Of a stretch of DNA of 64,000 nt, positions 2,859 to 58,706 are shown in pieces. Location of the stretch: NCBI GenBank assembly GCA_964016885.1, contig OZ024740.1:147436001-147500000 (forward strand), read 5' to 3'. The stretch is from Eledone cirrhosa. Lineage: Eukaryota. The stretch's first letter is position 1. The number at the start of each line of letters is the position of its first letter. The notes under the pieces were generated by a model, which did not search any database, had not been told where the DNA came from, and saw only the letters and a list, made by a program, of their open reading frames with translations. Both the position numbers and the translations under genes were made by a program.

Positions 2859-5414
2859 CCCTTTAGCATTCACATTGAATTGTCAAATGTCATGTTCATC
2901 TATTCGCATTATTTTCACTTAATTATACTCAAGAGGGTTATCAATTTTATTTGTTTGTAATTACTTTAATTTTCTATGTGCAGACTTGAAATTTTGTCAG
3001 TAGATGTTTAAAGAACTATAATTTACAATTATATATTTTTACCTGATTTTTTTTTGTTAAATTTGACTTTTATGGGCAGGTGAAATTAATTAACAGGTGT
3101 AAAAGTAATAACTTTATGGATAAACACAAACATTTAAACTTTATCTGCCTTACCTGTTAGATTTGTTGCAAAAAAAATCCAATAATGATCTAGATGCTGA
3201 TTTCCATCAATTCTAGCAGTTTTCCGAACAGGTGAATTAATTAAAAATGCAGGTGTAATCAGTACAAGGTTTTAGTCTTTCTCTACATTCCAGGCAAATA
3301 TTTTCATTGAAAAAAAAATGTATAAAACCTTTTCACCAGTCAAAATAATATTGGCAATGTACTCTTACACAATGTACGGTGTACGGTGTAAAATTACGTA
3401 ACAGAATGTTCCCAATATATAAGTTCATTAACAGGTGTGTCACAGGTGAATGCAGGTGTTTTTGTATATGTGTGCTAATATATTTTTAAAATATTGTTTT
3501 CAATATTGTCAGACAATATTTCTATCGTGATACTGCCCAAAGCACCCTTTACATAATGGCACTTTGCAAAAGGAACACATAAATAGGGTTTGGATTGTGT
3601 AACCTTTAACAGTTTTTCTCTTTTGCAAAGAGCACAATCGGCAAACCTTCCTCCTACCATCAATTCTCTCCACTTTATGAAAATTAATATTTTCTTTGTG
3701 GACCACTGCTAATTTTGATTTTTTCCCAGCTTTGTGTTTGCGAGAAGTATATCCTCCACGTAGCTGGGATGCAATGTCCACGCGAAATTACATGTGGCAG
3801 TAGTCCTTTGGTGGTGGCGGATCCTTGTGGCTTTTAGTAAATACAATAAAAGAATTCACAATGGTTAAATTCACTAAAAACCACAAGATGCATCTCCACT
3901 ATTTCTTTCCAGAGCGTCCAACTGGGTAATACGCGCAATATTGGTTGGATTTGTCAACCCCACCCATATATTTATTATAGGAGAGGTTAACTAAAGGTCT
4001 ACCCTCAGCCCCAACACCTGGTTGTTGGTTAGAATTCAGGAACAAAATTTGCCGTTTGTCTTTGAACACTGTGGCTAACATGTTCTCTTTTTGCATTTGG
4101 AGAATGTCTCCTCTGTTTTTTAGTTTCGCAACTTTTATTTCTTGGGGTAGCCCTTTCCGATTGCTCATTATTGTGCCACAGGTGTATGTATTTACAAGGG
4201 CAAGATCCTCTGCTAAAAGCACCGAAGAAAAAAAAACGGTCAAAATAAATATGTCTGTGTTGAAAGTGGAAGGGTTGAGTCAGCGACCACACAACATCGT
4301 AACCCAACCCGTGTTTTCTCTCTCCGTTAAGTTTTTTTCCTGTGTAAACATCAAAGTTTACACAGTATCCCGTGTCCGATTCACAGTTCCCACACTTTGA
4401 TGCCCCATTTGGTGGGTTTAGCTGGCATATACTGTCTGAAATGAACCCTACCCTTATACCCAATCATAGCTTCATCAACACTAAGATTTTTTCCAGGTAT
4501 ATACATACTTTTAAATTTTTCTGTCAACATTTCAATTAATGGTCGTACTTTGTACAGTGGGTCGTAATTCGATTCATTTCTACCAGGGGCATTTGTAGTA
4601 TCAACCAGATGCAAATACTGGTTTAATTTTATAAATCTCGTTTTTGCCATAATACTAGATATATAAGGGTCACCAAACCTTATATCAGTACTCCAATAAT
4701 TCCACAGTCGTGGAAATTGTTTAATACCAAACAATGTTTATGGTAAAAAACGCTTTCATTTCGGCAGAATCTGTCGGACGCCATAACAGATCGGGTTTTC
4801 CTCGATTAGAAATTTGTTGTTGTGCATAGTGATTTGTCTCTTCTGCCACAACTTCGAAGAAAGTTTGTGGTAGAAATAAAAAAAAATAATCCAGTACTTT
4901 AGCATCGGGTGGTAATGTGTGTTGTGGTCCAGTATTTTCATTAAAATCCGAAACATGTATCGGTGTTGTTTCTTTCAACCACGTTGGTGTTTTTTCAATG
5001 GTGTCAGATATATCTTCGCTTTCACTTTCAAAGTGACTATCATCATCATCATCAGATATATCAGAAATAAATATATCTGATTCATTTAAAGATAAATCAC
5101 TGATATTATCTTCTGTTTCTTTTTTATCTTGAATGTCGTAGGATGTAAAACCTTCAAATTCGTTGTCGCTACTTTCGGAAGCCATGTTACAATTTCAAAG
5201 TTAAAAACACGTGTTATCGCAAGGTCTTTAACTATAATAAGAGTTAATTTTCGCGCATAAGGGCTTTATCTCGCTGTAATCTCGAATTGACGAGATTTTG
5301 ATGATGTCAATGTTTATTTTTAGAAGGAGATCTACGTGTCGTTGGAAATGTCGGTTTGAATAAATGAAAGGGGACATAATCTTGTCGGTTTTTGTCGCTT
5401 TGAACGCTAAAGGG
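2859..5414 (-). mobile_element. piggyBac DNA transposon in RFC3 intron 5
   Basis: TTAA at 2855-2858 and 5415-5418; 14-bp TIRs CCCTTTAGC(A/G)TTCA. Confidence 0.95.
3509..5185 (-). pseudogene. piggyBac (PGBD4-like) transposase, frameshifted
   Basis: Acidic N-terminus; DPLYKVRP, SVDEAM, KPTKWGIK, YNKYMGGVD; C-terminal Cys-rich domain; split across 5-6 ORFs. Confidence 0.9.
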
Positions 5415-23954: not shown

Positions 23955-24259
23955 TTTAAGATAAATTTATCTTAGGTTTAGTTTCTATTTGTAACTTGTT
24001 GAGCGACCACCTGATTTGCCATATTGTGTCGCACTCTGCCTGCTTACATAACAAATCATGTACATTATAAACGTACGGTAGTGGAATACTACCATCACGT
24101 TGCTAACTACAGTAGCATATAAAAACAAAAAACAAAAAGATTACAAAGGGTTATTATACAATCACTTTGACGTCTTCGAAATATAGCAATACAATAGACT
24201 ATACAATAAATAGAGAATGTACACCCGCTATTTATTGTATAATCTCCCTTCTTTTTATT

Positions 24260-24315
24260 GCGAAATAAATACTTTTGTTTATATTTTGTTAGTGTATGAA
24301 AAAATATCTGTACAC

Positions 24316-24373
<58 letters not shown>

Positions 24374-24428
24374 GTGTACAGATATTTTTTCATACACTAA
24401 CAAAATATAAACAAAAGTAATTATTTCG

Positions 24429-24429
<1 letters not shown>
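24260..24429. repeat. Palindrome: ~59-bp arms around (TA)n
   Basis: 24260-24318 is the reverse complement of 24371-24429 with one mismatch. Confidence 0.95.
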
Positions 24430-24484
<55 letters not shown>

Positions 24485-24489
<5 letters not shown>

Positions 24490-24690
24490 AACGAGTAGGA
24501 CCCCGACGGCTGAGGTCAAGCCGTTTCGACGGCTAATTCTGGACTAAATTTAGTCCAGAATTAGCCGTCGAAACGGCTTGAGCTCAGCCGTCGGGGTCCT
24601 ACTCGTTCCTATTACCCACTCTACTACCCTAAGTATTGAGTACTTTGGTGCGTTATGGTCCACCTGGTTCCTTACCACATTTCCTTCGTT
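24485..24690 (+). mobile_element. Penelope-like terminal fragment with 128-bp foldback and hammerhead 3' half
   Basis: Palindrome 24485-24612 centred on CTAAA|TTTAG; same family as 42383-42500 and 45775-45956; flanked by (TA)n. Confidence 0.75.
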
Positions 24691-24977
24691 ATATATATAT
24701 ATATATATATTGAAAGGATAACAAGGACGATTGATTACTCCTTCATTGTATTTATTGGTAGGTGACGCGCATTTTGCCACTGATCAGCTCAAGGTTCGAT
24801 CAGTATCGATCCTACCCGACTCAATAATCGGCGGCTCGACGGACCCTTTAAAATGCTATAAGAAAATCCTTTCAATATATTACACTCTGTATAGCTCTAC
24901 ACCTCATCACAGAAGTGAACCTAAACATCGAGTGTTTTCCCGGGTGAACCTGCAGTAACTCCAAGTTACACCCCCTG

Positions 24978-25934
24978 GAATTCGCAGACCAGACCCCTTC
25001 TTCCTCCCGTTAGACCTGTGCGAAATTCATTCCTTGCTCGCATTTCAACCAGGTTTGATGGTCTTTATTCTCTCGTTCACGATTTCACCGAATTTATATT
25101 CATAGAAATCTGGGACTTGTCTCTTTCTTCATCACTTTCTGTTGCTTAAACCATTTTGTTTGTTTACCCTAGCATCCCCTTTATTTACGTGTCCCAACGA
25201 CTTTTTTTAGCCGTTGCTCGCACCAACCTGAGGTATATGGTCTTTAAAGCGATGAAATGCCTATGACGGCTGGAAGACCACTGATGAAGGACACACTTTT
25301 TCATATGTAACCCATTTGCAACGCCGCAGCTCCATTATTATCATATTTACACATATATTTTTTCCTCTGCCGCTACCCGTCTGTTTCGTTCTTTGTATCT
25401 TTACCCTTTCTAGCAGTCTCTCTCTCTCTGTTAGCCTCTTCCTCACCCTTCACTCACTCATTCTCTATCACTACCTCTCCTCCTCCTCTTTCTTCCCGTT
25501 TGACCTGTCCGTAATTCTTTTCTCGCGCGCTCTTGGCCAAGCGGTATGAATTTTTTTTCTCTCTCTCTCTCTCTCGTCTGCGACTTCACAGAACTTATGT
25601 TTACCGAATTCGCAGACCAGACCCCTTCTTCCTCCCGTTAGACCTGTGCGAAATTCCTTCCTTGCTCACATTTCAACCAGGTTTGATGGTCTTTATTCTC
25701 TCGTTCACGATTTCACCGAATTTATATTCATAGAAATCTGGGACTTGTCTCTTTCTTCATCACTTTCTGTTGCTTAAACCATTTTGTTTGTTTACCCTAG
25801 CGTCCCCTTTATTTACGTGTCCCAACGACTTTTTTTAGCCGTTGCTCGCACCAACCTGAGGTATATGGTCTTTAAAGCGATGAAATGCCTATGACGGTTG
25901 GAAGACCACTGATGAAGGACAAACTTTTTCATAT
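24978..25934 (+). repeat. ~328-bp direct repeat (24978-25306 / 25606-25934), pLTR-like
   Basis: Near-identical copies 628 bp apart, each ending CCACTGATGAAGGAC; related sequence at about 45130-45410. Confidence 0.85.
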
Positions 25935-25951
25935 ATATATATATATATATA

Positions 25952-26241
25952 TATAGAGAAAATTGAGGTTGGTAATGGCACATGGAATATATAAGAGACA
26001 GAATACTTTTTTGTGAAAAAACATAATTTTATAAGGTAAGGAAATAATAAAGGGTATAAAAAATGACCGGTTTCGATGGGTCTGCAAAAGCTTTTGCAAA
26101 AGCTTTTGCAGACCCATCGAAACCGGTCATTTTTTATACCCTTTATTATTTCCTTACCTTATAAAATTATGTTTTTTCACAAAAAAGTATTCTGTCTCTT
26201 ATATATTCCATGTGCCATTACCAACCTCAATTTTCTCTATA
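25952..26241. repeat. 290-bp palindrome carrying hammerhead 3' half (CGAAACCGGTC)
   Basis: Centre between 26096 and 26097 (GCTTTTG|CAAAAGC); identical ORF starts on both strands in the ORF track; flanked by (TA)n. Confidence 0.95.
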
Positions 26242-26269
26242 ACCTTCGTTTTGTGTAGAAAATTACACT

Positions 26270-26315
<46 letters not shown>

Positions 26316-28356: not shown

Positions 28357-31300
28357 CTACAGGATGGTATACAGAGAAGGCCCATTTACACGAGCCATTC
28401 TCGCCACTATCACCCACCTTTCATAAAACTGCCTGTGGCCAAGCACCTCTCTCTCCATTCTTATCCTTCTTCCGAAGTGATATCGGAAGAAGTAGACCAG
28501 ACTATGGCCAGAGAGGAAGTTGCCTGACCTCAGACCTTTCAATCGTGTCCACCAAACAACCTCTTTCAACATGGCTATTACGCACAGAAAAACCGCCTTT
28601 GCTTCCTTTGTGAAGAGGGGAGGCGGTTTGATTGTCATCACGGACTCGGCTGTCAATTTAATCGGCGCCACCCGCGACAGCAGTTGTTCGGCGTAGCCCC
28701 ACAGATCAGCCACGCCCGGACATTGCACCAATGCGTGCGCCACGGTTTCTTCGTGACGCACGCATCTAGGGCAAATCTTTTTTGAGGGATCCTTGTCCGG
28801 GCGCCCGTGTCTGTAGAGCCTCTCTCGAACGGGTAGAGCCCCTCGGTAGCACTGCCAGGCCAGTGACTTCTGGAAGTTGTCCATTGGTCCTGGGCCGAAA
28901 GTCCTACCGAACAGGCTGGCCAGTTCGTCTTCTTCCATGTCCAGCGACTCTCCAAGGGTGTCATCGCCCCTGCTAGCCACCAGCCCTCTATAGAATGATG
29001 AGGTGGATTCTCCACCGATGGCCCGGCCCGCTTGCCAGAGAGCCCTGAGCGCCTGAGCACACTCAGTGTGCCAGTCTCCCAGTTTTCCGGATCTTTGCTT
29101 GACCCAGGACTGTAGCTCGGTGAGTGAGACGAGTCTCGGAAAGGCTCGTTTCACGAACGGAGCCCACACCGGTTGACCAGTGAGGAATACCTGTAGGTGC
29201 CGTAGCCTTAATGCGTGCCTACGCATCATCAACCACGGCATCCCCAGCCCTCCTTTCGAAGGTTGTTGGCAGCAGATGGATCTTCTCACCATAGGAGGAC
29301 GCTTCTTCCAAAGAAATTGGAAGAGCATGCGTTCCATGGTGGTGAGTGTTTCCTTAGGGCAAGGCACGACAGTCAGGCGGTAGTAAGTGACGGACGCTAT
29401 GTAAATGTTCGCCACCTCCGCCCGGCCTTTTAGGGACAGCTTACACTTGGCCCATTTCTGGGTTAGTGCAAACACCTTGTTCGTAACCTCGTTCCAGTTC
29501 TTTTCCACCTGGAGGTCCGGTCCAAACCAGACCCCAAGCAACTTTACCGGGCCCTCCGTCCAGTGTCCGACGACACCATCGGGAGGCATCGGTCTGCCTC
29601 TCCACGTTCCGAGTTGCAGCCCGATGGATTTTTCCCGGTTCAGTTTCGCTCCTGACAACCTTTCGTACTCCTCCAGTAAGGTACCGATCGCCTCGATCTC
29701 CGAGTCGGTTGATACCATTACTGTTACGTCATCGGCGTAGGCCGACACCGCTTTGCTCAATCCTGGTTCCAGGGGGATACCCTGCAACAACTCCAACTTC
29801 CTCAGTAAAGGCTCGAGAGTCAATACGTACAGAAGGGAGGAGAGAGGGCACCCCTGTCGAATGGATCGTGTGATTTCGAACGGCTTCGAAAGGTAGCCGT
29901 TCACCTTGATCCTAGAACAGATGTGGTTGCTATGTAGGGCAGTGATCCAGCCTCTGAAAACAGGACCGAACCCAGCCGCCGCTAGCACCGCATCCAGGTA
30001 ACCATGGTCGACCCTATCGAAGGCCTTAGACTGATCCAAGTTGATCAGGGCCCCACCGAAGCCGGGTTTGTTGCCAACCCTCTCTATGATGTATCGCATG
30101 AGGTGGAGGTTATCGTGAATGGACCTGGATGGGATAGCACATGTCTGCGCATCTCCCACCAGGCCACCCACGACAAGCGCCAACCTCTTTGCTAACACCT
30201 TGGCCAAAATCTTTAACTCTGTGTTTAGCAGGGTTATGGGCCGAAAATTATTTATACTATCCCCCTTGTTCTCGTCCTTCCTCACCAGCGTGACTACGCC
30301 CTTGGCTACAGAACAAGGAATTCTCCCGTTCTGCTGCCAATTGCAGTAGACCGCTTCGAGGAGTTCGGAGAAGAAGACCGGCATTGCTAAATAAAGTTCG
30401 TAAGGTATACCATCGAGACCTGGAGATTTGCGTCTGCTGCATTGGCTCAGCGCATCTCCGATCTCATCAGCCGAGATTGGTCCCTCGCAGGACTCCGCCT
30501 CTTTGTTCGAGAGACGCGGCAGGCCGTCGAGGTATGGACCGAAATCCACGCCCCGGCCCGGACCCTCGCCTCCCCCGAACAATCGGGCAAAGTGCTTTTG
30601 AAAGGCCTCGCACATCTGCTTAGGCTCCCGGATCACTCGTCCATCTTCGTCTTGCAACGACCGGATGGTGGATCGATTTCCACTTTTAGCTTCTGTCACG
30701 CGGGCCCATCCAACGGCTTTGGCCCCCTCATTACCTAGAGCACGTATTTTACTTCGAATGACGCAGCCTTCATGCTTTGCATCGAAAAACTGGTTCAAGG
30801 CCGTCCTCGATGCCAGCACTCGGGCCACATCTTCGCTCTTGATTGCCTCTTCTAATTTACCTGTTAATTCTTTCTCGTTTCTATTCCTATTGGCAGCTAA
30901 CATCTTGCTATAACTTATTGATTCTGTTCTAATCTCTCTTTTGAGAGATGCCCACCATCGGTTGTTGACGATTGCACCCGTCAACCTCTCCTTAACTAAT
31001 CTGCTAATCCGGTTTCTGTAAGTCTCTTTTGCCGGTAAAGACAAATTAAGTTTCCAGTAACCGGGACCCTGTCTATGTGTTTTCTCGAGATTGACCACGC
31101 AGGTCACTAATTTGTGATCCGTGTAGCCAACCGTGCGCATTTCTGGACAGCTTAATATGTCCCTATCCTTACTTCTAACTAAGAATCTATCTAAGTACGA
31201 TCTAGATTGACCACTGTGGTTTCTCCAAGTCCAGGTAGGCACAGTTGGAAAATCTAGTCGATATCTATCGACCAAGTTAAAACGGTCGAGTAACCCCTTG

Positions 31301-31794
31301 AGGCTGTTACACCCCCCTCTATTAGGACATGCTCCTGCATAGTCCCAACGTGCATCTAGGATGTCATTCCAATCCCCCGCTAGAAGCAGGGAACGCGACG
31401 TTCCCAGAAAAGTCTCCAAACGCTGGAAGAAGTCGGGCCGTTCAGCTCCGAAAGGGGAGTAGACGGCGACCAGTCTCAAGGCCGCACTTTCACTACTGCC
31501 AACGTCTAGCACCAACAAACGACCCTCCGGGTCCGAGTGCACAACCTGTACGGCAAGACCCAGGTGTTTTTGCAGCAGCACGACAACCCCACCCCCACCT
31601 CCAGGTTGACAGAGAGATGCATGCACCTCAAAGTCATCGAAGGTGGGGGCCAGCTGCCGCATGACGCTGATTCGAGTCTCACAGATAACCATTACATTTA
31701 TACTACATGACCTGAGGTCATTTAGAAGCTTTGCTTGCTTCCAAGTTGAGCCCAGGCCACGTGCATTCAAACATCCTACTCTTAACACATCCAT
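28357..31794 (-). CDS. L1/Tx1 ORF2 (APE endonuclease + RT + zf-RVT)
   Basis: 1145 aa; LNARGL, GDWN, YLDRF, TDHK; KSPGLDG, FRPITLLN, KAFDRV, QGCPLS, YADD; CPRC..ETVAHALVQC. Confidence 0.96.
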   Translation of the reverse strand: MDVLRVGCLNARGLGSTWKQAKLLNDLRSCSINVMVICETRISVMRQLAPTFDDFEVHASLCQPGGGGGVVVLLQKHLGLAVQVVHSDPEGRLLVLDVGSSESAALRLVAVYSPFGAERPDFFQRLETFLGTSRSLLLAGDWNDILDARWDYAGACPNRGGCNSLKGLLDRFNLVDRYRLDFPTVPTWTWRNHSGQSRSYLDRFLVRSKDRDILSCPEMRTVGYTDHKLVTCVVNLEKTHRQGPGYWKLNLSLPAKETYRNRISRLVKERLTGAIVNNRWWASLKREIRTESISYSKMLAANRNRNEKELTGKLEEAIKSEDVARVLASRTALNQFFDAKHEGCVIRSKIRALGNEGAKAVGWARVTEAKSGNRSTIRSLQDEDGRVIREPKQMCEAFQKHFARLFGGGEGPGRGVDFGPYLDGLPRLSNKEAESCEGPISADEIGDALSQCSRRKSPGLDGIPYELYLAMPVFFSELLEAVYCNWQQNGRIPCSVAKGVVTLVRKDENKGDSINNFRPITLLNTELKILAKVLAKRLALVVGGLVGDAQTCAIPSRSIHDNLHLMRYIIERVGNKPGFGGALINLDQSKAFDRVDHGYLDAVLAAAGFGPVFRGWITALHSNHICSRIKVNGYLSKPFEITRSIRQGCPLSSLLYVLTLEPLLRKLELLQGIPLEPGLSKAVSAYADDVTVMVSTDSEIEAIGTLLEEYERLSGAKLNREKSIGLQLGTWRGRPMPPDGVVGHWTEGPVKLLGVWFGPDLQVEKNWNEVTNKVFALTQKWAKCKLSLKGRAEVANIYIASVTYYRLTVVPCPKETLTTMERMLFQFLWKKRPPMVRRSICCQQPSKGGLGMPWLMMRRHALRLRHLQVFLTGQPVWAPFVKRAFPRLVSLTELQSWVKQRSGKLGDWHTECAQALRALWQAGRAIGGESTSSFYRGLVASRGDDTLGESLDMEEDELASLFGRTFGPGPMDNFQKSLAWQCYRGALPVRERLYRHGRPDKDPSKKICPRCVRHEETVAHALVQCPGVADLWGYAEQLLSRVAPIKLTAESVMTIKPPPLFTKEAKAVFLCVIAMLKEVVWWTRLKGLRSGNFLSGHSLVYFFRYHFGRRIRMEREVLGHRQFYERWVIVARMARVNGPSLYTIL

Positions 31795-31827
31795 GTGGGC
31801 GGCAGAGCCAAAGGAGAGTGTAGAGAC

Positions 31828-33705
31828 CTACCTTTCCGCTTCCCGGGGTTCGGGTTGCACGACTTCCATGGGGTCGGGGGTGTTGGGTGAAGGGGTGTCT
31901 TGTGGTGGTGTGGGGTCGTCGGTGTGTGGTGGGGTTGGGGTGTTTGGAGTTGTGTTGGGGAGGGGAAGGGGAGGGGGAAAGCTTTTTAGTAGGACGCGGT
32001 TTATGGGTTTGACAGAGGGTGGTCCTACGTCCTCCTTAAAATCCTTTTTTAGTTTTTGGTAGAGGTTCATTGGGATTTTTATTAGTTTTAAATGTGGGTG
32101 GTTTTCTGATGAAACAAAGTTTACACCTTCGGTTTGTACCGAAGGATTATTGTATATGAGTTCATTTAATTTATTATTGTTTCTGTTGATGTAAGTATAG
32201 TGTAATGTCTTTTTTTCCGATGGTGTGAGTGTTTCGAAGAGGGGAGGGGCAGGTTTGGTTTTGTTTGTTGCTGGAGGGGTGTTTTCTGTTTTGTTAGATT
32301 GTGTTGCGATTTGGGTGGGGGTTGTTTGTCCTTGTGTGTTTTGCACATGTTTTCTTTTTTTCCTTTTAATCTGTCTGAAGGACTCCGTTTCTTCCTCCGA
32401 ATTCGTTGGGTTATCTTCAGTGTTGGAGGGAAGAGGTATGTTTGCTGGTAATGTTTCCGTGTTGGTTTTCTTTGTGGGGGAGATGGATGTCACTATGTTA
32501 GACTGTGTTGTGTGTTGTGTCTGCGGTGGTTGTGTTGTTTTATTGAGTGAGAGGTTGGGTGGGCCTGTATTTTGTTTTGGGGTAATGTGTTGTGACTGTT
32601 TGTGTTGTGGTGGTGTTGTGGTGTTACTGAGGGACGGGTTGGGTGGGACTGAGTTTTGTTGTTTGTTTATCTGTTGTGGTGGTGGTGGTGGAGCTGGTGT
32701 TGGTAGCAGGGTTTTCTTTTTGTTGAGTTGGGGACAAGCGGCCTTCAGGTGCCCTCTGCCTGCACAGATATGGCAGGACGGCCTTCTCCCCTCCACGCTA
32801 ATGTTTATATACCCGTGGTCCTCTAATAGGATTCTGTCGGGTATTTGGGCGATGCGTTCAGGCTTCATTTGTACTACCAGCTCTATACCTGTTCCACTGA
32901 ACGCATTGCCTGTGGTTTTCCCAATGGAAATCACGTTGTCATTCACTGGATCGATGAAGCCAGCTATGAGCCAGCAGTAGTCCACATCTGGCATCATTGC
33001 ATCCAGCCATATGCGTTGAGTTTTTTTTCCCATATAAGATGGATAAAAGGTGAAATTTTTCGAACGAATCGGTGACAAAGCACATTTTTTTGCCGCCGAT
33101 TCGTTCTTCATGATAATTGCTAGGCTTCCATACAGTCTGTCTTTTCTTATGAAAGTTGTTTCATTCAGTACTTCTGCGAGTACTGTTTTGATATCTGCTT
33201 GAGAAGGCTGTTCAGGTTTTTTTGTACTGTTGTTGATGGTCCGAAACTTGACCGTTCGGCTTTCAATGTCTTTCGTGAATTCTTGAGGCATTTTTACCAA
33301 TAAAATACCATTCTCACCTTCACTTATGTATTGTTTTGCGTCCGTGATCCTTCGTACCACATCTGAAATGTTTTCCGCTATATAAGTCAAAGATTTCTTT
33401 GTTTTCTGTGCAAATGAAATCTTGTCGTCTGCTTTGTTTTCTGATATTATGTTATTTTCAACTGTTATTTTTTTGTTTGTTGTGTCTTTGTTTGTGTTAT
33501 TAGTATTGTCATGCAATTTTTCAAATTTTTTTTCTTCGTTGTTTTCGACATTTAATTTTTTCTCCGCAGATTCGTCCGTTTTTATTTTCATTTTTCCTTC
33601 CTTCTCTATGACGTTAGTTGGGAAGGAAGGGAGGACTAAAGCGTGCGAGCTTACAACTCTTACCGCTGTCCCCCCACCACTATTTTCGTTCGCTGCGTTT
33701 AACAT
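31828..33705 (-). CDS. L1/Tx1 ORF1 (gag-like, CCHC knuckle)
   Basis: 625 aa; CHICAGRGHLKAAC knuckle; Pro/Thr/Gln-rich C-terminus; ends 33 bp before ORF2. Confidence 0.9.
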   Translation of the reverse strand: MLNAANENSGGGTAVRVVSSHALVLPSFPTNVIEKEGKMKIKTDESAEKKLNVENNEEKKFEKLHDNTNNTNKDTTNKKITVENNIISENKADDKISFAQKTKKSLTYIAENISDVVRRITDAKQYISEGENGILLVKMPQEFTKDIESRTVKFRTINNSTKKPEQPSQADIKTVLAEVLNETTFIRKDRLYGSLAIIMKNESAAKKCALSPIRSKNFTFYPSYMGKKTQRIWLDAMMPDVDYCWLIAGFIDPVNDNVISIGKTTGNAFSGTGIELVVQMKPERIAQIPDRILLEDHGYINISVEGRRPSCHICAGRGHLKAACPQLNKKKTLLPTPAPPPPPQQINKQQNSVPPNPSLSNTTTPPQHKQSQHITPKQNTGPPNLSLNKTTQPPQTQHTTQSNIVTSISPTKKTNTETLPANIPLPSNTEDNPTNSEEETESFRQIKRKKRKHVQNTQGQTTPTQIATQSNKTENTPPATNKTKPAPPLFETLTPSEKKTLHYTYINRNNNKLNELIYNNPSVQTEGVNFVSSENHPHLKLIKIPMNLYQKLKKDFKEDVGPPSVKPINRVLLKSFPPPLPLPNTTPNTPTPPHTDDPTPPQDTPSPNTPDPMEVVQPEPREAER

Positions 33706-33973
33706 TTCTGTTAGACGATTGAAATTTTTTACACAAAATTTTTTTTAAAACAGGTTTTTCACCTCTAGGAGGGGTAAAGATGAGCTGACCCACCGCCTGA
33801 CAGTTCAGACGGAGGGTCAAGCTACACAATTGTATCAAAATTAAGTTTGAACTCACAAAATTTCCTCAATAAATTTGAACAAAACTTCTGTGCGAAGTGA
33901 ATGACATCCACACTGTAGAACAGACGACAGCTAGATTAATATATAGATTAAATATATAGATAGATAGATATAT

Positions 33974-36900
33974 TTCTTTATTTACCATAAAGGCATAAAA
34001 AGAAGGGACAAATACAAAGGGGGAGTTTACATAAAACCGAGTAAAAAGTGTATAAAATGAAAATAATCGAAAACAACCTCAAAAGGGAGGAGACGTGATG
34101 GGGGTTGCACACCCTACCGAAAAAGTGTGCAATCCTTTGCCCGGGGAGCACATGGAGAAGGTGCTCCCCTCTCCTTCACTTCTTTACCTACAGGATGGTA
34201 TACAGAGAAGGCCCATTTACACGAGCCATTCTCGCCACTATCACCCACCTTTCATAAAACTGCCTGTGGCCAAGCACCTCTCTCTCCATTCTTATCCTTC
34301 TTCCGAAGTGATATCGGAAGAAGTAGACCAGACTATGGCCAGAGAGGAAGTTGCCTGACCTCAGACCTTTCAATCGTGTCCACCAAACAACCTCTTTCAA
34401 CATGGCTATTACGCACAGAAAAACCGCCTTTGCTTCCTTTGTGAAGAGGGGAGGCGGCTTGATTGTCATCACGGACTCGGCGGTCAATCGAATCGGCGCC
34501 ACCCGCGACAGCAGTCGTTCGGCGTAGCCTCACAGATCAGCCACGCCCGGACATTGCACCAATGCGTGCGCAACGGTTTCTTCGTGACGCACGCATCTAG
34601 GGCAAATCTTTTTCGAGGAATCCCTGCCCGGGCGCACGTGTCTGTAGAGCCTCTCTCGAACGGGTAGACCCCCTCGGTAGAACTGCCAGTCTAGTGACTT
34701 CTGGACGTTGTCCATTGGTCCCGGGCCGAAAGTCCTACCGAACAGGCTGGCCAGTTCGTCCTCCTCCATGTCAAGCGACTCTCCAAGGGTATCATCGCCC
34801 CTGCTAGCCACCAGCCCTCTATAGAATGATGAGGTGGATTCTCCACCGATGGCCGGGCCCGCTTGCCAGAGAGCCCTGAGCGCCTGGGCACACTCAGTGT
34901 GGCAGTCTCCCAGTTTTCCGGATCTTTGCTTGACCCAGGACTGCAGCTCGGTGAGCGAGACGAGTCTCGGAAAGGCTCGTTTCACGAACGGAACCCACAC
35001 CGGTTGACCAGTGAGGAATACCTGTAGGTGCCGTAGCCTTAATGCGTGCCTACGCATCATCAACCACGGCATCTCCAGCCCTCCTTTCGAAGGTTGTTGG
35101 CAGCAGATGGATCTTCTCACCATAGGAGGGCGCTTCTTCCAAAGAAATTGGAAGAGCATGCGTTCCATGGTGGTGAGTGTTTCCTTAGGGCAAGGCACGA
35201 CAGTCAGGCGGTAGTAAGTGACGGACGCTATGTAAATGTTTGCCACCTCCGCCCGACCTTTTAGGGACAGCTTACACTTGGCCCATTTCTGGGTTAGTGC
35301 AAACACCTTGTTCGTAACCTCGTCCCAGTTCTTTTCCACCTGGAGGTCCGGTCCAAACCAGACCCCAAGCAACTTCACTGGGCCCTCCGTCCAGTGTCCG
35401 ACGAAACCGTCGGGAGGCATCGGTCTGCCTCTCCACGTTCCGAGTTGCAGCCCGATGGATTTTTCCCGGTTCAGTTTCGCTCCTGACAACCTTTCGTAAT
35501 CCTCCAGTAAGGTACCGATCGCCTCGATCTCCGAGTCGGTCGATACCATTACTGTTACGTCATCGGCGTAGGCCGACACCGCTTTGCTCAATCCTGGTTC
35601 CAGGAGGATACCCTGCAACAACTCCAACTTCCTCAGTAAAGGCTCGAGAGTCAATACGTACAGAAGGGAGGAGAGAGGGCACCCCTGTCGAATGGATCGT
35701 GTGATTTCGAACGGCTTCGAAAGGTAGCCGTTCACCTTGATCCTAGAACATATGTGGTTGCTATGTAAGGCAGTGATCCAGCCCCTAAACAGGACCAAAC
35801 CCAGCCGCCGCTAGCACCGCATCCAGGTAACCATGGTCGACCCTATCGAATGCCTTAGACTGATCCAAGTTGATCAGGGCCCCACCGAAGCCGGGTTTGT
35901 TGCCAACCCTCTCTATGATGTATCGCATGAGGTGGAGGTTATCGTGAATGGACCTGGATGGGATAGCACATGTCTGCGCATCTCCCACCAGGCCACCCAC
36001 GACAAGCGCCAACCTCTTTGCTAACACCTTGGCCAAAATCTTTAACTCTGTGTTTAGCAGGGTTATGGGCCGAAAATTATTTATACTATCCCCCTTGTTC
36101 TCGTCCTTCCTCACCAGCGAGACTACGCCCTTGGCTACAGAACAAGGAATTCTCCCGTTCTGCTGCCAATTGCAGTAGACCGCTTCGAGGAGTTCGGAGA
36201 AGAAGACCGGCATTGCTAAATAAAGTTCGTAAGGTATACCATCGAGACCTGGAGATTTGCATCTGCTGCATTGGCTCAGCGCATCCCCGATCTCATCAGC
36301 CGAGATTGGTCCCTCGCAGGACTCTGCCTCTTCGCTCGAGAGACGCGGCAGGCCGTCGAGGTATGGACCGAAATCCACGTCCCCGCCCGGACCCTCGCCT
36401 CCCCAGTAACCGGGACCCTGTTTATGTGTTTTCTCAAGATTGACTACGCAGGTCACTAATTTGTGATCCGTATAGCCAACCGTGAGCATTTCTGGACAGC
36501 TTAATATGTCCCTATCCTTACTTCTAACTAAGAATCTATCTAAGTACGATCTAGATTGACCACTATGGTTCGTCCAAGTCCAGGTTGGCACAGTTGGAAA
36601 ATCTAGTCGATATCTATCGACCAAGTTAAAACGGTCGAGTAACCCCTTGAGGCTGTTACACCCCCCTCTATTAGGACATGCTCCTGCATAGTCCCAACGT
36701 GCATCTAGGATGTCATTCCAATCCCCCGCTAGAAGCAGGGAACGCGACGTTCCCAGAAAAGTCTCCAGACGCTGGAAGAAGTCGGGTCGTTCAGCTCCGA
36801 AAGGGGAGTAGACGGCGACCAGTCTCAAGGCCGCACCTTCACTACTGTCAACGTCTAGCACCAACAAGCGACTCTCCGGGTCAGAGTGAACAACCTGTAC

Positions 36901-39298
36901 GGCGAGACCCAGTTGTTTTTCCAGCAGTACGACAACCCCACCCCCACCACCAGGTTGACAGAGAGATGCATGCACCTCAAAGTCATCAAAGGTAGGGGCC
37001 AGCTGCCGCACGACGCTGATCCGAGTCTCACAGATAACCATTACATTTATACCACGTGACCTGAGGTTATTTAGAAGCTTTGCTTGCTTCCAAGTTGAGC
37101 CCAGGCCACGTGCATTCAAACATCCTACTCTTAACACATCCATGTGGGCGGCAAAGCCAAAGGAGAGTGTAGAGACCTACCTTTCTGATTCCCGGGGTTC
37201 GGGTCGCCCGACTTCCATGGGGTCGGGGGTGTTGGGTGAAGGGGTGTCTTGTGGTGGTGTGGGGTTCTCAGTGTGTGGTGGGGTTGGGGTGTTTGGAGTT
37301 GTGTTGGGGAGGGGAAGGGGAGGGGGAAAGCTTTTTAGTAGGACGCGGTTTATGGGTTTGACAGAGGGTGGTCCTACGTCCTCCTTAAAATCCTTTTTTC
37401 GTTTTTGGTAGAGGTTCATTGGGATCTTTATTAATTTTAAATGTGGGTAGTTTTCTGAAGAAACAAAGTTTACACCTTCGGTTAGTACCGAAGGGTTATT
37501 GTTTATGAGTTCATTTAATTTATTATTGTTTCTGTTGATGTAAGTATAGTGTAATGTCTTTTTTTCGGATGGTGTGAGTGTTGAGGGGAGGGGCAGGTTT
37601 GGTTTTGTTTGTTGCTGGAGGAGTGTTTTGTGTTTTGTTGGATTGTGTTGACATTTGGGTAGGGGTTGTTTGGTCTTGTGTGTTTTGCACATGTTTTCTT
37701 TTAATCTGTCTGAAGGACTCCGTTTCTTCCTCCGAATTCGTTGGGTTGTCTTCAGTGTTGGAGGGAAGAGGTATGTTTGCTGGTAATGTTTCCGTGTTGG
37801 TTTTCTTTGTGGGGGAGATGGATGTCACTATGTTAGACTGTGTTGTGTGTTGTGGCTGCGGTGGTTGTGTTGTTTTATTGAGTGAGGGGTTGGGTGGGAC
37901 TGTTTTGTTTTTGGGTAATGTGTTGTGACTGTTTATGTTGTGGTGGTGGTGTAGTTTTATTGAGGGACGGGTTGGGTGGGACTGAGTTTTGTTGTTTGCT
38001 TATCTATTGTGGTGGTGGTGGAGCTGGTGTTGGTAGCAGGGTTTTCTTCTTGTTGAGTTGGGGACAAGCCGCCTTCAGGTGCCCTCTGCCTGCACAGATA
38101 TGACAGGACGGCCTTCTCCCCTCCACGCTAATGTTTATATACCCGTGGCCCTCTAATAGGATTCTGTCGGGTATTTGGGCAATGCGTTCAGGCTTCATTT
38201 GCACTACAAGTTCTATACCTGTTCCACTGAACGCATTGCCTGAGGTTTTCCCAATGGAAATCGCGTTGTCATTCGCTGGATCGATGAAGCCAACTATGAG
38301 CCAGCAGTAGTCCACATCTGGCATCATTGCATCCAGCCATATGCGCTGAGTTCTTTTACCCATATAAGATGGATAAAAGGTAAAATTTGTCGAACGAATC
38401 GGCGACAAAGCATATTTTTTTGCCGCCGATTCGTTCTTCATAATAATCGCTAGGCTTCCATACAGTCTGTCTCTTCTTATGAAAGTGGTTTCATTAAGTA
38501 CTTCTGTAAGTACTGCTTTGATTTCTGTTTGTATTGGTTGTTGAGGTTTTTTAGAAATGTTGTTGATGGTGCGGAAAACGACCGTCCAACTTTCAATGTC
38601 TTTGGTGAGTTCTTGAGGCATTTTTACCGATAAAATACCATTTTCCCCTTGAGTTATGTATTGTTTGGTGTTTTTAATTCTTTGTGCCACATCTGAAATA
38701 TTTTCAGGTATATATGTCAAAGATTTCTTTGTTGTTTGTGCAAACGAAATATTATTGGTGTTGACTTTGTCGTCTGCTTTGCTTTCTGTTATGATGTTGT
38801 TTTCAAATGTTATTTTTGTGTTTGTTGTCTTTGTTTGTGGTATTAATATTGTCATGCAATTTTTCAATTTTTTTTTCTTGTTGGAATCAATGTCCAGATT
38901 TGTGTTTTCGTCATTTTTCTCCGCACATTCGTCTGTTTTTCTTTTATTTTTTCTTTCTTTCTCTATGACGTTAGTTGGGAAGGAAGGGGGGGGGGGACTA
39001 AAGCGTGCGAGCTTACAACTCTTACCGCTGTCCCCCCACCACTATTTTCGTTAGCTTCGTTTAACATTTCTGTCACACGATTGAAATTTTCAGCCATAAA
39101 ATTTTTAAAAACAGGTTTTTCACCCCTGGGAGGGGCGAAGATGAGCTGACCCACCGTCTGACAGTTCAGGGGGGTCAAGCTACACAATAGTATCAAAATT
39201 AAAATTGAACTTACAAAATTTCCGCAATAAATTGGAACAAAACTTCTGCGCGAAGTGAATTACATCTACGCTGTAGAACAGACGACAGCTAGAATTTG
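33974..39298 (-). mobile_element. L1/Tx1 copy 2 (disrupted)
   Basis: Same family; in-frame deletion of about 480 bp after GPGYW, frameshift near 35785, TGG>TGA at 34530, broken ORF1; ~23-bp TSD at 33951-33973 and 39299-39321. Confidence 0.92.
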
Positions 39299-42382: not shown

Positions 42383-42386
<4 letters not shown>

Positions 42387-43469
42387 AAAAAGTATGACCC
42401 CGACGGCAGAGCTCAAGCCGCTTCGACGGCTATTTCTGGACTAAATTAGAATTTTTAGCCTGGTGAATAAATAGCCGAACTTGTCAAGGGGTACTTCCTT
42501 ATATGGGAAGATTGTAGTTGTCAAGAGGATTGGTTAAAATTTGTTGTAAACACAAATAAGTCTATCATGGCATTTAGTGGGAGGTAGGGGTGGATGAACT
42601 TGCCTGTAGAACAATAAGGGTGTGAGTGGAGCGGTCAAGCGTTGAAAGTGATATGTATACAGCAGATTCTAAGGATAGTGTATGAAGTGGAGGAGGGGCG
42701 TTATAGAATAGGTAAATCGAATGAGAGTAGGAGACAATAAAAGATAATAGAAAAAAAATATATATAGTGAGAAATGAATAAAAATTTGTTGTTGAGGGGG
42801 CACGTAGATCTATCAGGGCAGTTACACCTTCTGGTCGGTTCTCCACTGATGTCTAGGTTATTTCTTCCATAGGGGTTGAGTTTTTTGTTGTTTGAGGAGA
42901 CGATGTTTTGTGCGAAGTTAGGTGTGGTGCTGTAGGAGAGTTTGATGGTGTTTTTGTTGATTATGTTGTGGTAGCGGTGTTGTAGTGGGAAGTGTTTTTC
43001 GAGGAGTCTAAAGAAGATTTTCCCGATAGGTGTTGCTACCTCGGCATTATGGGGAGGATTGAACCACGCTACGTTGCGTGAGCGGCGGTGTCGCCTGCTG
43101 GTTCCGCTAAGGGAAGCTGGATAAAAGGATATTTCCTCCCGGAAGCCACTCCGCTTGAGGGCCTGGTTGTAATGAGGCGCGTGTTCGTCGAATATCTGCT
43201 CATTAGCGGACAAACAAGATATGCGGAGGGAGATGTTTTTAACCAGGTTATTGGTGATGTTTCTAGGATGGTTAGAGCGGCGGTGGATGTAGTGCAGGTT
43301 GTCGTTTGGTTTCCTGTATAGGTAGTACCAGGAAATTGACTCGGGTTAGGGACGTTTGTAGGGTGATTTTAAATCCCCAGTCCTGGAGTAGCTTCCGGGA
43401 GGAAATATCCTTTTATCCAGCTTCCCTGAGTGGAACCAGCAGGCGAGACCGTCGCTCACGCAGTCGTAG
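42383..43469 (-). mobile_element. Penelope-like retroelement fragment (Naiad-type linker), endonuclease deleted
   Basis: YNQALKRSG, RNVAWFNPP, HFP..H, IKLSYS, CNCPDRSTCPL; degenerate hammerhead at 42397-42492; inverted duplication 43385-43469 of 43068-43152. Confidence 0.85.
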
Positions 43470-44532
43470 ACATTGAACTGAATTTACTTGCGTTTGTATA
43501 GGGTTTCGGTTGACCCAATTTCTGCAATTTACATCGTCAAATTGAGATTTGACCTATATAACATTTGTTGTTTTGTAAACTAACTTTCGGTGAATACTAT
43601 ATTGGTATATATATATTTTTTTCTTCGACCTCGCGTCGGTGTGTGTGAGTGTGTGTGTACTCACTCACACTAACTGTGACCGACTGTAATTCTAAAGATT
43701 TGATGTTGAGATTAGACCCGTCCAGCGTCTTTTACAGCTATTGAGAGATAGAGACTTGATAGTTTTATGACCCTAACTGAGGACGATAGCAGTCGGCGTG
43801 TTTTGGCTGCTTAATCTTCATATGGGGGACAAAACTCTAGTGAGTGAACATCGTTAAATTTTCTCCCTCATATCAAGATTTGAAGACAATTCATTTTCAC
43901 CTGCCGAGGTCAGTGATAATCGATCATGGCCGCACGATCGATCTATCTCTTATTGAAACATGTGTCGTGATTAAAATTATTGGAAATTTATACCATACCT
44001 TCGGATCTTTATTTTGATATATATATATATATATAGAATAGAATGAAACGAAATTTCATTTCTCACTCTTAGTACGGCAGTTACTTAAATGTAAGTATGT
44101 ATGTATGTATACGTACATACATATATGTATACAGACGTACAGTAGTATGTATATATATATACATACATGCACACATATATATATGCACGTATCGGTTTAC
44201 CGAAAATTTATTATAATGCTCGGTTTGTTTGTATTATAATAAATGTTCGGTAAACTGATACATGCATATATATATGTGTGCATGTATATATATATACATA
44301 CTACTGTACGTCTGTATACGTATATGTATGTACGTGTACATACATACTTACATTTAAGTAACTGCCGTACTAAGAGTGAGAAATGAAATTTCGTTTCATT
44401 CTATTCCATTTATCGTTTTCGGTGCGCCTGGCCGACTAAATTCACTTGATATGCAAATTGGGCTGCTCAGCCGTTAATATGCATAAGGAAAGTATATACT
44501 TTCAGACGTTCAACCTTCTGGCAGGAAGATAT

Positions 44533-44575
44533 ACGATGCTGACGATAGCTAATAAGCTTGAAACTAGTACATCGT
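44533..44575 (+). ncRNA. Type I minimal hammerhead ribozyme (intact core)
   Basis: ACGAUG-CUGACGA-UAGCU AAUA AGCUU-GAAA-CUAG-UA-CAUCGU; palindromic stem III ACUAGU. Confidence 0.85.
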
Positions 44576-44664
44576 TCCTGTGTCAGTGTTGAACAAAAAG
44601 GTGACGTGGTTGCCTAAACACTGTACGGCGTAATTCGACGTTCAACCATCTGGCAGGAAGATAT

Positions 44665-44707
44665 ACGATGCTGACGATAGCTAATAAGCTTGAAAGTAGT
44701 ACATCGT
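44665..44707 (+). ncRNA. Second hammerhead in 132-bp tandem unit (stem III variant)
   Basis: Same as the previous one except GAAAGUAGUA. Confidence 0.75.
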
Positions 44708-44914
44708 TCTTGTGTCAGTGTTGAACAAAAAGGTGACGTGGTTGTCTAAACACTGTACGGCGTAATTCGGGCTGTTTGTTTGTTTACAAACAAACCGAGC
44801 ATTATAATAAATGTTCGGTAAACCGATACGTGCATATATATATGTGTGCATGTATGTATATATACATACTACTGTACGTCTGTATACATATATGTATGTA
44901 CGTATACATACATA

Positions 44915-44979
<65 letters not shown>

Positions 44980-45418
44980 CTTTCGTCCCCTCTGTCAGTT
45001 AACACTTTCTCTCGACTGACCTCTTCCTCGCACTTCCACTCACTCACTCTCTGTTTCTCCCCTTCTCACTTCCTCCCGTTCGCTAGGAGTCGGATTCCTT
45101 CTTTCTCACATCTCATTCACAGCGAAAGGTCTGTTTGCTAAGCGCTCATGAATTCACCCAGCTTATACTGATCGAATAACCATGTTGCTTGTTTTTCTTC
45201 CCATCTTCGGTTAGCTTTTCCTTGTTGTTTACTTGTCTCACTCGCTTTATGCGTTTCACTTGTCCCAATAGCTTATTTTAGTTATTGCTCGCACCAACGT
45301 GAGGTATATGATTTTTAATGCGATGAAATACCAATGATCGTTGGCAAATCACCGATGAGGACTAATTTTATAATATGTAATCCATGTGCAACCATGCAGT
45401 ATTCTTCTCCCCATATTT

Positions 45419-45774: not shown

Positions 45775-45956
45775 AACGAAGGAGTTGTGGTAAGGAACCA
45801 GATGGACCATAACGCACCTGAGTACTCACTACGTAGTAGAGTGGGTAATAGGAAAATGTATGACCCTGACAGCAGAGTTCAAGCCGTTTCGACGGCTATT
45901 TCTGGACTCCGTCGAAACGGCTTGAGCTCTGCCGACGGGGTCATACATTTTCCTAT
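45775..45956 (-). mobile_element. Penelope-like terminal fragment with foldback
   Basis: Reverse complement of the 24485-24690 family; inverted arms 45848-45895 / 45909-45956. Confidence 0.75.
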
Positions 45957-46351: not shown

Positions 46352-46950
46352 TTAGCAAATGCAGGCAAGCCTGTGTGAAAAATGTGTCAAGAATTTGAAC
46401 CGTTTATGAACTTTGTCCGATGAGTTATGTTTCTGGGAAGCTTTCTCAATATGTCCTATAACTTTATGGTGATTGTGGTATCGAGCGTAAGCGATTGGTT
46501 TTTCTTTGAAACTATCTTCAACAGATATGTCTGCATTACGGGACAAAAGAAATTCAACAATTTTGGGATCACCTCTATACGCTGCTAAATGCAACAGTGT
46601 ACAGTTACCTGGTAATCCATCACTTGATTCGCCTAATTGGCAGTTGATACTTACTCCAGAATCTAAGACTTTTTCAAGTAGTTCTTTATGACCCCGTAAA
46701 ACGCAGGCATGCACAAATGTCCATCCATGAATATTATGTGTAAAGATTTTCTTTGCCGTAAGAGGTCGAGATTTAATGATGTTATTAACATTTCTTAAAA
46801 GGTTCTTTTCTTTCGAATGCAACTGCTTAAGTAAACTTACAGCAATTTTGTCAATTCTGAAAGCATCTGGAAATGGTGATGCGGGTTCTGGAAAATCAAG
46901 TGCCATAAAGTAGGGCATGGTGTTGTGAAGGTTTTGTAGTTTTGTGAATC
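46352..46950 (-). CDS. Ankyrin-repeat protein, terminal (possibly only coding) exon
   Basis: GWTFVHACVLRGHKELLEKVLDSGVSIN; TLLHLAAYRGDPKIVEFLLSRNADISVED..PIAYA; TTGTTCCAG acceptor at 46951-46952; in-frame ATG at 46918. Confidence 0.8.
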
Positions 46951-47008
46951 CTGGAACAAACAATAAACTAATTAGTTACATCGGAATAAACGAGAGTGAA
47001 GGTGTATA

Positions 47009-49134: not shown

Positions 49135-49260
49135 GTATGTATGTGTGTGTGTGTTTTACGTTTTTACGTTTTTACTTGTTCCAGCCATCTGGCTGAGGCC
49201 ATGCTGGTATATATATTAATTCAAAATATTAACAAAAATAGAACTTCTTGTGATCAAGTA

Positions 49261-49327
49261 TATTTTATTATACATATTTCAGAGGTACTGAGATAACTTC
49301 AACAGTACGTCCTCATCAGATAAAATA
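49261..49327 (-). ncRNA. Type I minimal hammerhead ribozyme
   Basis: UAUUUUAU-CUGAUGA-GGACGUACUG...CAGUACCUCU-GAAA-UAUGUA-UA-AUAAAAUA. Confidence 0.75.
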
Positions 49328-51960: not shown

Positions 51961-52025
51961 ATATTTTATCTGATGAAAACGTACTGAAACACAATTGTAC
52001 CTTTGAAATATGTATAATAAAATAT
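51961..52025 (+). ncRNA. Type I minimal hammerhead ribozyme
   Basis: AUAUUUUAU-CUGAUGA-AAACGUAC...GUACCUUU-GAAA-UAUGUA-UA-AUAAAAUAU. Confidence 0.7.
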
Positions 52026-52233
52026 ATACTTTGGTTATGATAATATTTCTCATTTATTAATATTTTGAATAATATTATATATATATATATATATATATGT
52101 AGATAAATCTAATGCCAATATATATGTAGATAAATCTAATGCCAACTCTAACACATATATATCCTAGAAACGATCGTTAAATAATGAACTTTTTTTGTTT
52201 AATATAAGGAATTGTTTATTCATTATTTGCTTA

Positions 52234-54223: not shown

Positions 54224-54289
<66 letters not shown>
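52416..54289 (+). mobile_element. R4/Dong-type RLE retrotransposon, copy A (5'-truncated, frameshifted), (TAA)n tail
   Basis: Begins at KAFDMVPH; GIFQGDSLSP, LFMDD, NRPD; same 3' UTR as B and C. Confidence 0.92.
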
Positions 54290-55028
54290 CATCACCGCCG
54301 CCACCACTCCTTCATTGCTACCACCGCTATCCCCCCATTACCTTCTGTTAACTTACGAAAGGGGAAGATGGCGGTATCACTAGACAATATTAATAAACAA
54401 GATTAATATTTAATTTTGGATCAGGAATGTTAGAGTCGAAAAGGAGGAAAATGACAAAATGACTAAATAACTAAAGATAATTTCACCACCAACACCACCA
54501 CCACCACCACTACCACGATCAAAACTCTGGTCAAGTCGACTCAAACGCTATTTCTACTCCAACTTCAACACCATCACTACAGTACTACGATCAAATCACC
54601 ACCACCACTGCCTCATTATCGCTACCGCCGCTATTCTCTCCCACTACCTCCTGCTAGTTGCTGCTAGCACAGCACCGCCACCACCGCCACCGCTGCCTCA
54701 TATTCACTACCGCCGCTATTCTCTCCCGTTACCCCCTGCTACATCGTAGAATCCCCTAAAAGAGGAAGGCATCAAAATATATAAATAGACTGAATTGATG
54801 ACCCGGTCAAAATCAGAAAAACAAAAATCAAAATCAAAGCAGCACAGCAACAACGAAAAACGTAAAGAAAATAAAAATGAAGAGAAAAACAAACAGACGG
54901 ACAGAGAAGGGAAGGGAAAAACTAAGTCAGACATTCAAACACTACATTACAATGAAACTTATGCTTATTCATTTTTGGTGTGTTTTTTTTGCCTGTTTAT
55001 TTGTTTGTTTATTTATGTTCGTCTACAG

Positions 55029-58644: not shown

Positions 58645-58706
<62 letters not shown>

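Follow-up and report, generated by a model that had tools for sequence, protein, structure and literature searches.

In EN+ Penelope-like elements (PLEs), an inverted 5'-truncated copy lies beside a direct copy and a tail is carried at one end; palindromes at the junction and AT-rich or (TA)n targets have also been described (PMC3846280; PMC8557442). TATA- and Inr-like motifs have also been described in a pLTR of A. vaga. Self-priming was proposed for PLE junction palindromes in 2013, in a paper which argues for an antisense template and predates the link with ribozymes (PMC3846280). A Zn-finger-like Cys motif between RT and the C-terminal EN defines the Neptune clade and is also present in Nematis (PMC8557442). 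PLE hammerheads are of type I with a short stem I, a long stem II and, as a described covariant, a U3-A8 core; a palindromic minimal stem III is described as well (PMC4209133). In D. virilis, the Penelope promoter is TATA-less and transcription starts 46 bp upstream of an intron (PMC2377424), whose 3' end abuts helix I, so that the start precedes the whole ribozyme (PMC2377424, PMC4209133). For the anole Poseidon element, ribozyme cleavage was unnecessary for insertion (PMC11167929). How the inverted ends of PLEs are formed and what purpose the hammerhead serves are questions raised in these reports (PMC8557442, PMC3846280, PMC11167929).

Here we analysed a window of 64,000 nucleotides from Eledone cirrhosa (contig OZ024740.1) with three palindromic structures, A, B and C, each holding the 3' half of a hammerhead. 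Microsatellites are abundant in this DNA, and its repeats are of a cephalopod-like kind. We propose that they are head-to-head stubs of PLEs, and that the ends of the family to which A and C belong cluster because transcription starts inside stem II of the ribozyme; we give this proposal an even chance.

Results

All three palindromes of the original prediction were confirmed. Palindrome A (24485..24612) belongs to family 1, a Neptune-type PLE, and consists of two ribozyme 3' halves placed head-to-head. It is 128 bp long without spacer, its axis lies at 24548/24549, and a single mismatched pair at 24515 makes its arms differ at 1 of 64 bases. It matches the full family-1 copy of the window as far as position 42445-42447 of that copy. 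Its long arm has the hammerhead 3' half on the plus strand (24569..24592; CGAAAC, a 5-bp stem III and GUC) and is the only one to carry the tail of about 80 nt (24610..24689, plus strand), which runs to (TA)n. Palindrome B (25952..26241), of family 2, for which the searches gave no relative, is perfect over its 290 bp, with 145-bp arms and, at the centre, 2.3 repeats of a 12-nt unit. The minimal hammerhead 3' half CGAAAC-CG-GUC, whose stem III is self-complementary, was found at 26118..26128 (plus strand) and its mirror at 26065-26075 (minus strand), and one arm continues into a tail of about 34 nt (26242..26275, plus strand) that stops at (TA)n. Foldback C (45776..45956, minus strand) is again of family 1; the foldback proper occupies 45848-45956, with a 13-nt spacer and arms that are 84% alike by BLAST (4 differences in 45 shared bases). 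Its long arm starts at 45908, which equals 42442 in the full copy, and its tail reaches 45776, while the junction shows an extra C followed by a restart at the equivalent of 42428-42429. One identical base, the tail-less site, is where the 42385 copy stops and where the short arm stops in both A and C. All three structures are lopsided, a single arm carrying the tail, and both outer ends adjoin (TA)n. With the junctions of A and C, two of the three family-1 copies in the window are foldbacks.

A strict search for half-hammerheads (CGAAAC, stem III and GUC/GUA) over 128 kb, both strands included, gave 6 sites, 5 of them inside A, B and C, when 50 shuffles used as control led to an expectation of 0.74. 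The short arm of C, where GUC has become GAC, falls outside the six. CTGANGA was absent from A, B and C in a motif search of all three, which together with the five sites bore out the claim that each palindrome keeps only the 3' half. The further claim, that an inverted copy replaces the other half with the axis in stem II, held for family 1; for family 2 the axis is putatively placed there by the motif, because no complete copy was found. Searches of metagenome contigs and viral contigs returned neither a complete family-2 copy nor a linked ORF, and in the window family 2 consists of the hammerhead 3' half and the 34-nt tail only, in the same layout as family 1. The family-2 pattern did occur at 23 loci in metagenome contigs, none with hammerhead context or more than 27 nt of similarity, and these were discarded as chance; viral contigs gave 0 matches to the generic foldback pattern. 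Palindrome B directly follows one copy of a third repeat family (24978-25309, 25606-25937 and 45285-45392), which ends near CTGATGA and in which no GAAA half was found.

Among the 11 inverted structures listed in the window, A, B and C have a hammerhead half at the axis and 8 do not. Directly left of A, a palindrome at 24256-24433 is centred on (TA)n, with about 62 unique bases per arm, 2 mismatches and no hammerhead half, which suggests that the (TA)n tract itself folded back or that two insertions met in opposite orientation. The palindrome at 44036-44413 has arms of about 180 bp, a 15-nt spacer, no hammerhead half at its axis and a third copy of the arm at 44785-44928. A dispersed repeat at 537-962 shows a double inversion without hammerhead (arms of 109 and 100 bp, gaps of 111 and 117).

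The complete family-1 hammerhead lies on the minus strand at 42385..42492, the ribozyme itself covering 42397-42492 and 42385 being the tail-less 3' end. It has stem I (42492-42488/42401-42397), the core UUGACAA, a U3-A8 variant (42487-42481), a long stem II (42477-42427) with its apical loop at 42453-42446, GAAA (42424-42421), the final A of which is changed in this copy, and GUC (42404-42402), followed by the cut site at 42402/42401. The predicted fold of 42385..42492 contains stem I, a two-part long stem II and a 5-bp stem III, with a stability of z = -2.3 (6 of 200 shuffles equally stable). The original prediction had called this ribozyme full and decayed. It is full; however, it is mostly intact rather than decayed: the base at 42421 that restores GAAA was present in 98% of reads in two raw runs (5712 of 5824 in X9, 5756 of 5833 in X10) and a contig of a second organism (from contig set X5) differs from 42397-42534 by only 1 letter and 1 gap. 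The base at 42421 is the sole clear private change in the core of the window ribozyme, and UUGACAA looks like the core proper to family 1, its letters being equal to the published U3-A8 covariant (PMC4209133). With U3-A8, GAAA and helices I-III, the family-1 ribozyme has the make-up of a type I hammerhead and is predicted to cleave itself. Rfam gave no hammerhead match in the window; its 84 rows contained sub-threshold matches to hairpins and microsatellites and nothing else.

The window has four other type I hammerheads, all of them whole. A pair of 132-bp head-to-tail units at 44505-44769, each with a minimal type I hammerhead (core intact at 44539, one change at 44671), is retrozyme-like. 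Two intact minimal hammerheads at 49319 (minus strand) and 51970 (plus strand), within 49208-52083, are 69% alike and face outwards; the 2.6 kb between them is very AT-rich and contains a palindrome of 60 bp (51024-51083). In the copy at 49319, TCAGT opens the 3' strand of stem II and there is no clear TATA box at -31.

Family 1 comprises A (24485), C (45848) and the copy at 42385, which is situated downstream of the remnant of a PLE ORF. This remnant (42701..43345, minus strand; P0001) covers the RT thumb and a Zn-finger-like linker, and the endonuclease part is absent in this copy. P0001 aligns with four RT proteins at 41-44% (E 7.5e-36 to 4.2e-30), and C174, C176 and C182 of the Zn-finger-like Cys motif are conserved across P0001 and these homologues. 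We take the homologues to carry PLE-type RT motifs and a Cys-rich linker, and three of the four (P0002, P0004 and P0005) presumably have a C-terminal region of GIY-YIG type, as judged by eye. Contigs depart from the alignment at 42787-42789, where the window copy lacks the endonuclease. Pfam gave no match for P0001, and viral contigs contained 0 family-1 matches and 0 relatives of P0004. By published definitions, the sequence places family 1 as a Neptune- or Nematis-type PLE (PMC8557442); the label Naiad was rejected since the endonuclease is C-terminal. The inverted 5'-truncated copy and the one-sided tail are both present in A and C, and these, with the RT-matching ORF remnant and the (TA)n flanks, upheld the predicted PLE origin of A and C; for B, with its similar layout, a PLE origin is putative. 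The 3' ends of family 1 are of two kinds, tail-bearing and tail-less, both common in reads (loose ends before 42396 and 42386), the tail-less end lying 58 nt and the tail-bearing one 133-138 nt from 42442. The same Neptune-type copy also has a 5' inversion inside the ORF (43075..43462; arms 43075-43152 and 43385-43462, gap of 232 nt), a foldback away from the ribozyme.

Breakpoints were surveyed with 42385-43600 as target at 80% likeness in 4 of 11 listed data sets, namely contig sets X1 and X5 and raw runs X9 and X10, of which X5 is from another organism than the other three. All survey figures refer to the rows listed; the listing also held 442 difference rows and 817 loose-end rows beyond those counted. 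The joints listed were 15 of 18, and 7 of those 15 switch strand. Four of these seven break at 42438-42442, inside stem II, so the clustering predicted for inversion breakpoints is real in family 1. Among the rows listed, the stem II joints account for 13 of the 16 contigs from X1 and, taking X9 and X10 together, for every one of the 52 reads, and two of the joint rows are common to X1, X9 and X10, that is, to two studies, each read-level joint having only 1-2 start places per run. The remaining three strand switches are single contigs with gaps of 110-770 nt.

Loose ends were far more numerous at the same place: at least 362 and 346 reads in X9 and at least 406 and 332 in X10 behind 42436 and 42442, neither of which is a restriction site, and at least 64 contigs of X1 at 42442. 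Their consensus agreement was 0.35-0.57, hence their flanks are mixed. Summed contig depth does not measure copy number, and short contigs inflate it. Across stem II, it drops 11.7-fold in X1, with an implied mean edge at 42439, and 5.6-fold in X5, with an implied edge at 42427 from few contigs. The listed foldbacks make up at least 2.7% of ends in X9 and at least 4.2% in X10. These shares are lower bounds because hairpins amplify poorly and AATT-centred palindromes such as A get cut, and also because the X10 consensus enters the tail, an inversion outside the reach of the target stretch, and because the first letters of the X1 consensus resemble a foldback to 42438. Foldbacks are probably undercounted in short reads that went through PCR. 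At 42442, the X10 loose-end consensus leads into the family-1 tail, inverted and joined by a 3-4 nt match, which we read as a long-loop inversion or a propagated sub-element. Ends and strand switches thus cluster at 42436-42447. The ribozyme had been predicted to be a foldback hotspot, and the joints do cluster in stem II; however, most short-read ends there are not inverted, and stem II is first a hotspot of 5' ends, foldback being the less frequent result.

X9 and X10 are restriction libraries, the enzyme pair being deduced from AATT and from a loose end starting with CATG. Ends at 42447, 42538-42541 and 43334 were dropped because they are AATT sites in such libraries, and the ratios of RAD depth were excluded as well, together with the 909 loose ends lying behind 42447. 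Neither the molecules ending at 42447 (902 of 1308 and 1060 of 1408) nor the 7-9-fold drop of read depth in X9 and X10 was accepted as truncation for this reason.

The original prediction had explained the palindromes by the stem II hairpin of nascent cDNA, which would prime second-strand synthesis by itself. The cDNA of 42424-42477 is indeed predicted to fold strongly (-10.1 kcal/mol, z = -5.5, 0 of 200 shuffles) and ranks with the best 3'-paired folds among 971 positions. Such priming predicts a fold at about 42475-42477 (-9 to -10 kcal/mol) and the loop kept as a spacer. However, all six family-1 junctions (two in the window and four in reads) end at 42440-42447, before the loop is reached, and none of the six keeps the loop or the 5' strand; they restart at 42445, 42442, 42438, 42429 or 42405. 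Since no junction keeps the loop and the strand at the stop has no predicted fold (42424-42447 alone, 0 kcal/mol), priming by the hairpin was not supported in the form in which it had been put forward.

Several other elements were noted in the window. Long non-LTR retrotransposons of two kinds, whose ORFs measure 1140-1156 aa, occur as tandem copies at 28357-39041 and 52416-63261; we take one to be L1/Tx1-like and the other to have a restriction-like endonuclease, with (TAA)n between them. A 207-aa frame at 46352-46975 (minus strand) presumably has ankyrin repeats and is possibly a host exon or a retrocopy, and the frames at 4029-5194 (minus strand) are presumably the remnant of a piggyBac-type transposase.

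Discussion

What was observed, namely the PLE identity, the two 3' ends, the clustering of ends at 42436-42447 and the absence of the loop and of the 5' strand, led us to propose that transcription starts inside stem II, at 42442 and perhaps at 42447. Reverse transcription would begin internally, 58 or about 138 bases downstream, and would run off the 5' end of a probably capped RNA, so that the resulting stub ends in stem II. A transcript of this kind, copied from either internal site, would give half-ribozyme stubs such as those seen. A palindrome would result when an end of the cDNA, as a minority of them would, folds back on itself or is joined to a twin, and a C derived from the cap may pair with a nearby G and prime the inverted arm.

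The letters around the break are consistent with such a start. The initiator consensus is YYANWYY. Two matches lie in the breakpoint cluster (42438..42449, minus strand): 42442 is the +1 of TTAGTCC, and the +1 of the second is 42447, where palindrome A ends. The TATA-like TATTTATT at 42466..42473 (minus strand) begins 31 nt upstream of 42442 and overlaps the 5' strand of stem II. Its TATA score of 6/8 is the joint best, shared with three others, and 42442 is the only one of 16 initiator matches in 996 nt with a TATA at the -31 spacing, though the initiator motif is common at that count and the sequence was already in view when the TATA pattern was chosen. Pairs of TATA and initiator occur in the window at 2.8 per 10,000 positions, or 18 per strand. 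The loose-end consensus behind 42442 opens with C in all three sets from organism A (X1, X9 and X10), in X10 running on into tail sequence, and three of the six junctions (42441/42438, 42441/42405 and 42442/42429) continue with a C that is not the natural next base, which the other three have. As G makes up 16 of 58 template bases by hand count, three C's by chance would be expected in about 2% of cases, the junction C being a consensus letter only, one for which A is barred by construction and which a subfamily base could also explain. An untemplated G from the copied cap is known from L1/SVA insertions (PMC3287187, citing earlier work). We infer that 42442, and perhaps 42447, marks a transcription start, that the C may derive from the cap and that it may prime the inverted arm. 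Against a start within stem II stands the edge implied by X5, 42427, which is close to the base of the stem. So do the TATA-less promoter of D. virilis Penelope, with its start ahead of the whole ribozyme (PMC2377424, PMC4209133), the lack of YYANWYY at the axis of B and the antisense template favoured in PMC3846280.

A wider proposal is more tentative, and we regard it as rather more apt to be wrong than right: the core promoter of the element would lie within the ribozyme, the 5' strand of stem II serving as TATA and the 3' strand as initiator. The transcript would start with a half-hammerhead and could not uncap itself, the downstream repeat alone would be whole, reverse transcription of the leader would yield insertions of 58 or 138 nt, and the copied cap would prime the foldback.

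Other explanations bear on the same ends. The hairpin could be rescued if synthesis of the cDNA continues through stem II, the end folds onto itself to prime the second strand, and a nuclease or a later deletion removes the loop; loop removal would also yield plain truncations. Palindrome A equals the product of the apical helix minus the 8-nt loop, the strength of the fold speaks for it, and self-priming has the precedent of 2013 (PMC3846280). Palindrome B fits as well, because its axis has no YYANWYY by eye and has a small hairpin of its own (-4 kcal/mol); with this self-complementary hairpin at the centre, B could be a hairpin product plus a 12-nt duplication. But several restarts (42405, 42429 and, it seems, the tail) lie well away from the strand that would naturally pair, most short-read ends at the stem II site are not inverted, and stronger hairpins at 43060-43120 show no strand switch among the joints listed, which makes the rescued hairpin unlikely. 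The inversion in the ORF, the 8 of 11 inversions without hammerhead and the four whole type I hammerheads also speak against foldback by the ribozyme only. We consider it equally doubtful that the RNA is longer, that 5' truncation comes from RT halting within a folded stem II or from RNA breakage near the loop, that foldback proceeds through 1-4 nt of microhomology and that the promoter motifs are coincidental. This needs no promoter, stem II is long and stable, the ends spread over about 10 nt, and the X5 edge is near the stem base. A block of RT would be expected at the 3' base of stem II, however, and the ends lie 15-20 nt into the stem, beyond the 9-bp outer helix; the junction C and the -31 spacing are left unexplained.

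A start in stem II is compatible with a different second step, in which each arm is a separate cDNA; the two would be primed on opposite target strands, from the two RT start sites, and then linked by their heads. In the anole, the PLE protein is able to cut as well as extend both strands and uses two start sites (PMC11167929), the short arms stop exactly at the tail-less start site, A and B are spacer-free with self-complementary centres (AATT and TGCA), and the 12-nt duplication of B fits ends annealed at TGCA. Against it, a comparison between the two arms of A shows 1 difference in 58 positions, and one with other copies shows 6-9, which fits one template (or one master, or later conversion), and the junctions with loops of 3-4 nt fit an intramolecular turn; we hold two cDNAs to be rather improbable. 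That the palindromes are foldback artefacts of library or assembly is far less credible still. B is perfect over 290 bp and the exact junctions of A, B and C had no match in the independent reads and contigs searched, but the AATT centre of A would be cut in restriction libraries, and other foldback junctions, 3-7 bases from those of the window, are present in the independent data, the neighbouring joints recurring in runs from two studies. Moreover, arms have diverged (4 of 45 in C, 1 of 64 in A), and an artefact would not yield a one-sided tail and a shared short-arm end.

If the start inside stem II is true, the escape of the messenger from self-cutting is explained, and a large class of half-ribozyme repeats, missed by current searches, is predicted. 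If it is false, what is left is a PLE of ordinary layout in which a hotspot of truncation has been mapped. A sharp and countable end inside the ribozyme makes both PLE questions, the inverted ends and the purpose of the hammerhead, addressable.

Non-LTR retrozymes are head-to-tail tandem units, each with a whole hammerhead (bioRxiv 10.64898/2026.07.22.740005), and A, B and C, as single head-to-head units with half ribozymes, were rejected as such; the available text of that report and of PMC6962438 has no bearing on PLE junctions. Unlike the whole ribozymes described from PLEs (PMC4209133), many genomic copies here hold the 3' half only and would be missed by whole-ribozyme descriptors. Family 1 otherwise shares with those hammerheads type I, the short stem I, the long stem II and the U3-A8 core, and family 2 the palindromic minimal stem III, while family 1 differs in its 5-bp stem III and its stem II of about 50 nt (PMC4209133). 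As in L1/SVA insertions, an extra G at the 5' junction can be read as a copied cap (PMC3287187), here only indirectly, from consensus letters and three junctions, and we found no such report for PLEs in the literature searched. In vitro, the anole Poseidon element starts reverse transcription at two internal sites, one on either side of the tail, as we propose for family 1, and AT-rich targets are common to both; that study maps the starts of cDNA, not their ends, and its available text reports no start site inside stem II (PMC11167929). With the Neptune clade, family 1 shares, through the homologues, the Cys-rich linker and the presumed C-terminal region of GIY-YIG type, together with the hammerhead near the 3' end and the (TA)n flanks, whereas the endonuclease is missing in the window copy; the Cys motif does not tell Neptune from Nematis. 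A and C have the inverted 5'-truncated copy beside a direct copy and the tail at one end that are known from EN+ PLEs, and the junction palindromes and the AT-rich or (TA)n targets are likewise common to both (PMC3846280; PMC8557442). Compared with those elements, an arm here measures no more than 58-145 nt, family 1 has a tail of about 80 nt where 30-40 is described, and the junction maps within stem II of the hammerhead. In the open-access literature searched, no paper was found that places in stem II of the hammerhead either a start site or the 5' ends of PLEs. The layout of the palindromes is already known from PLEs, and the end point inside hammerhead stem II would be the new part.
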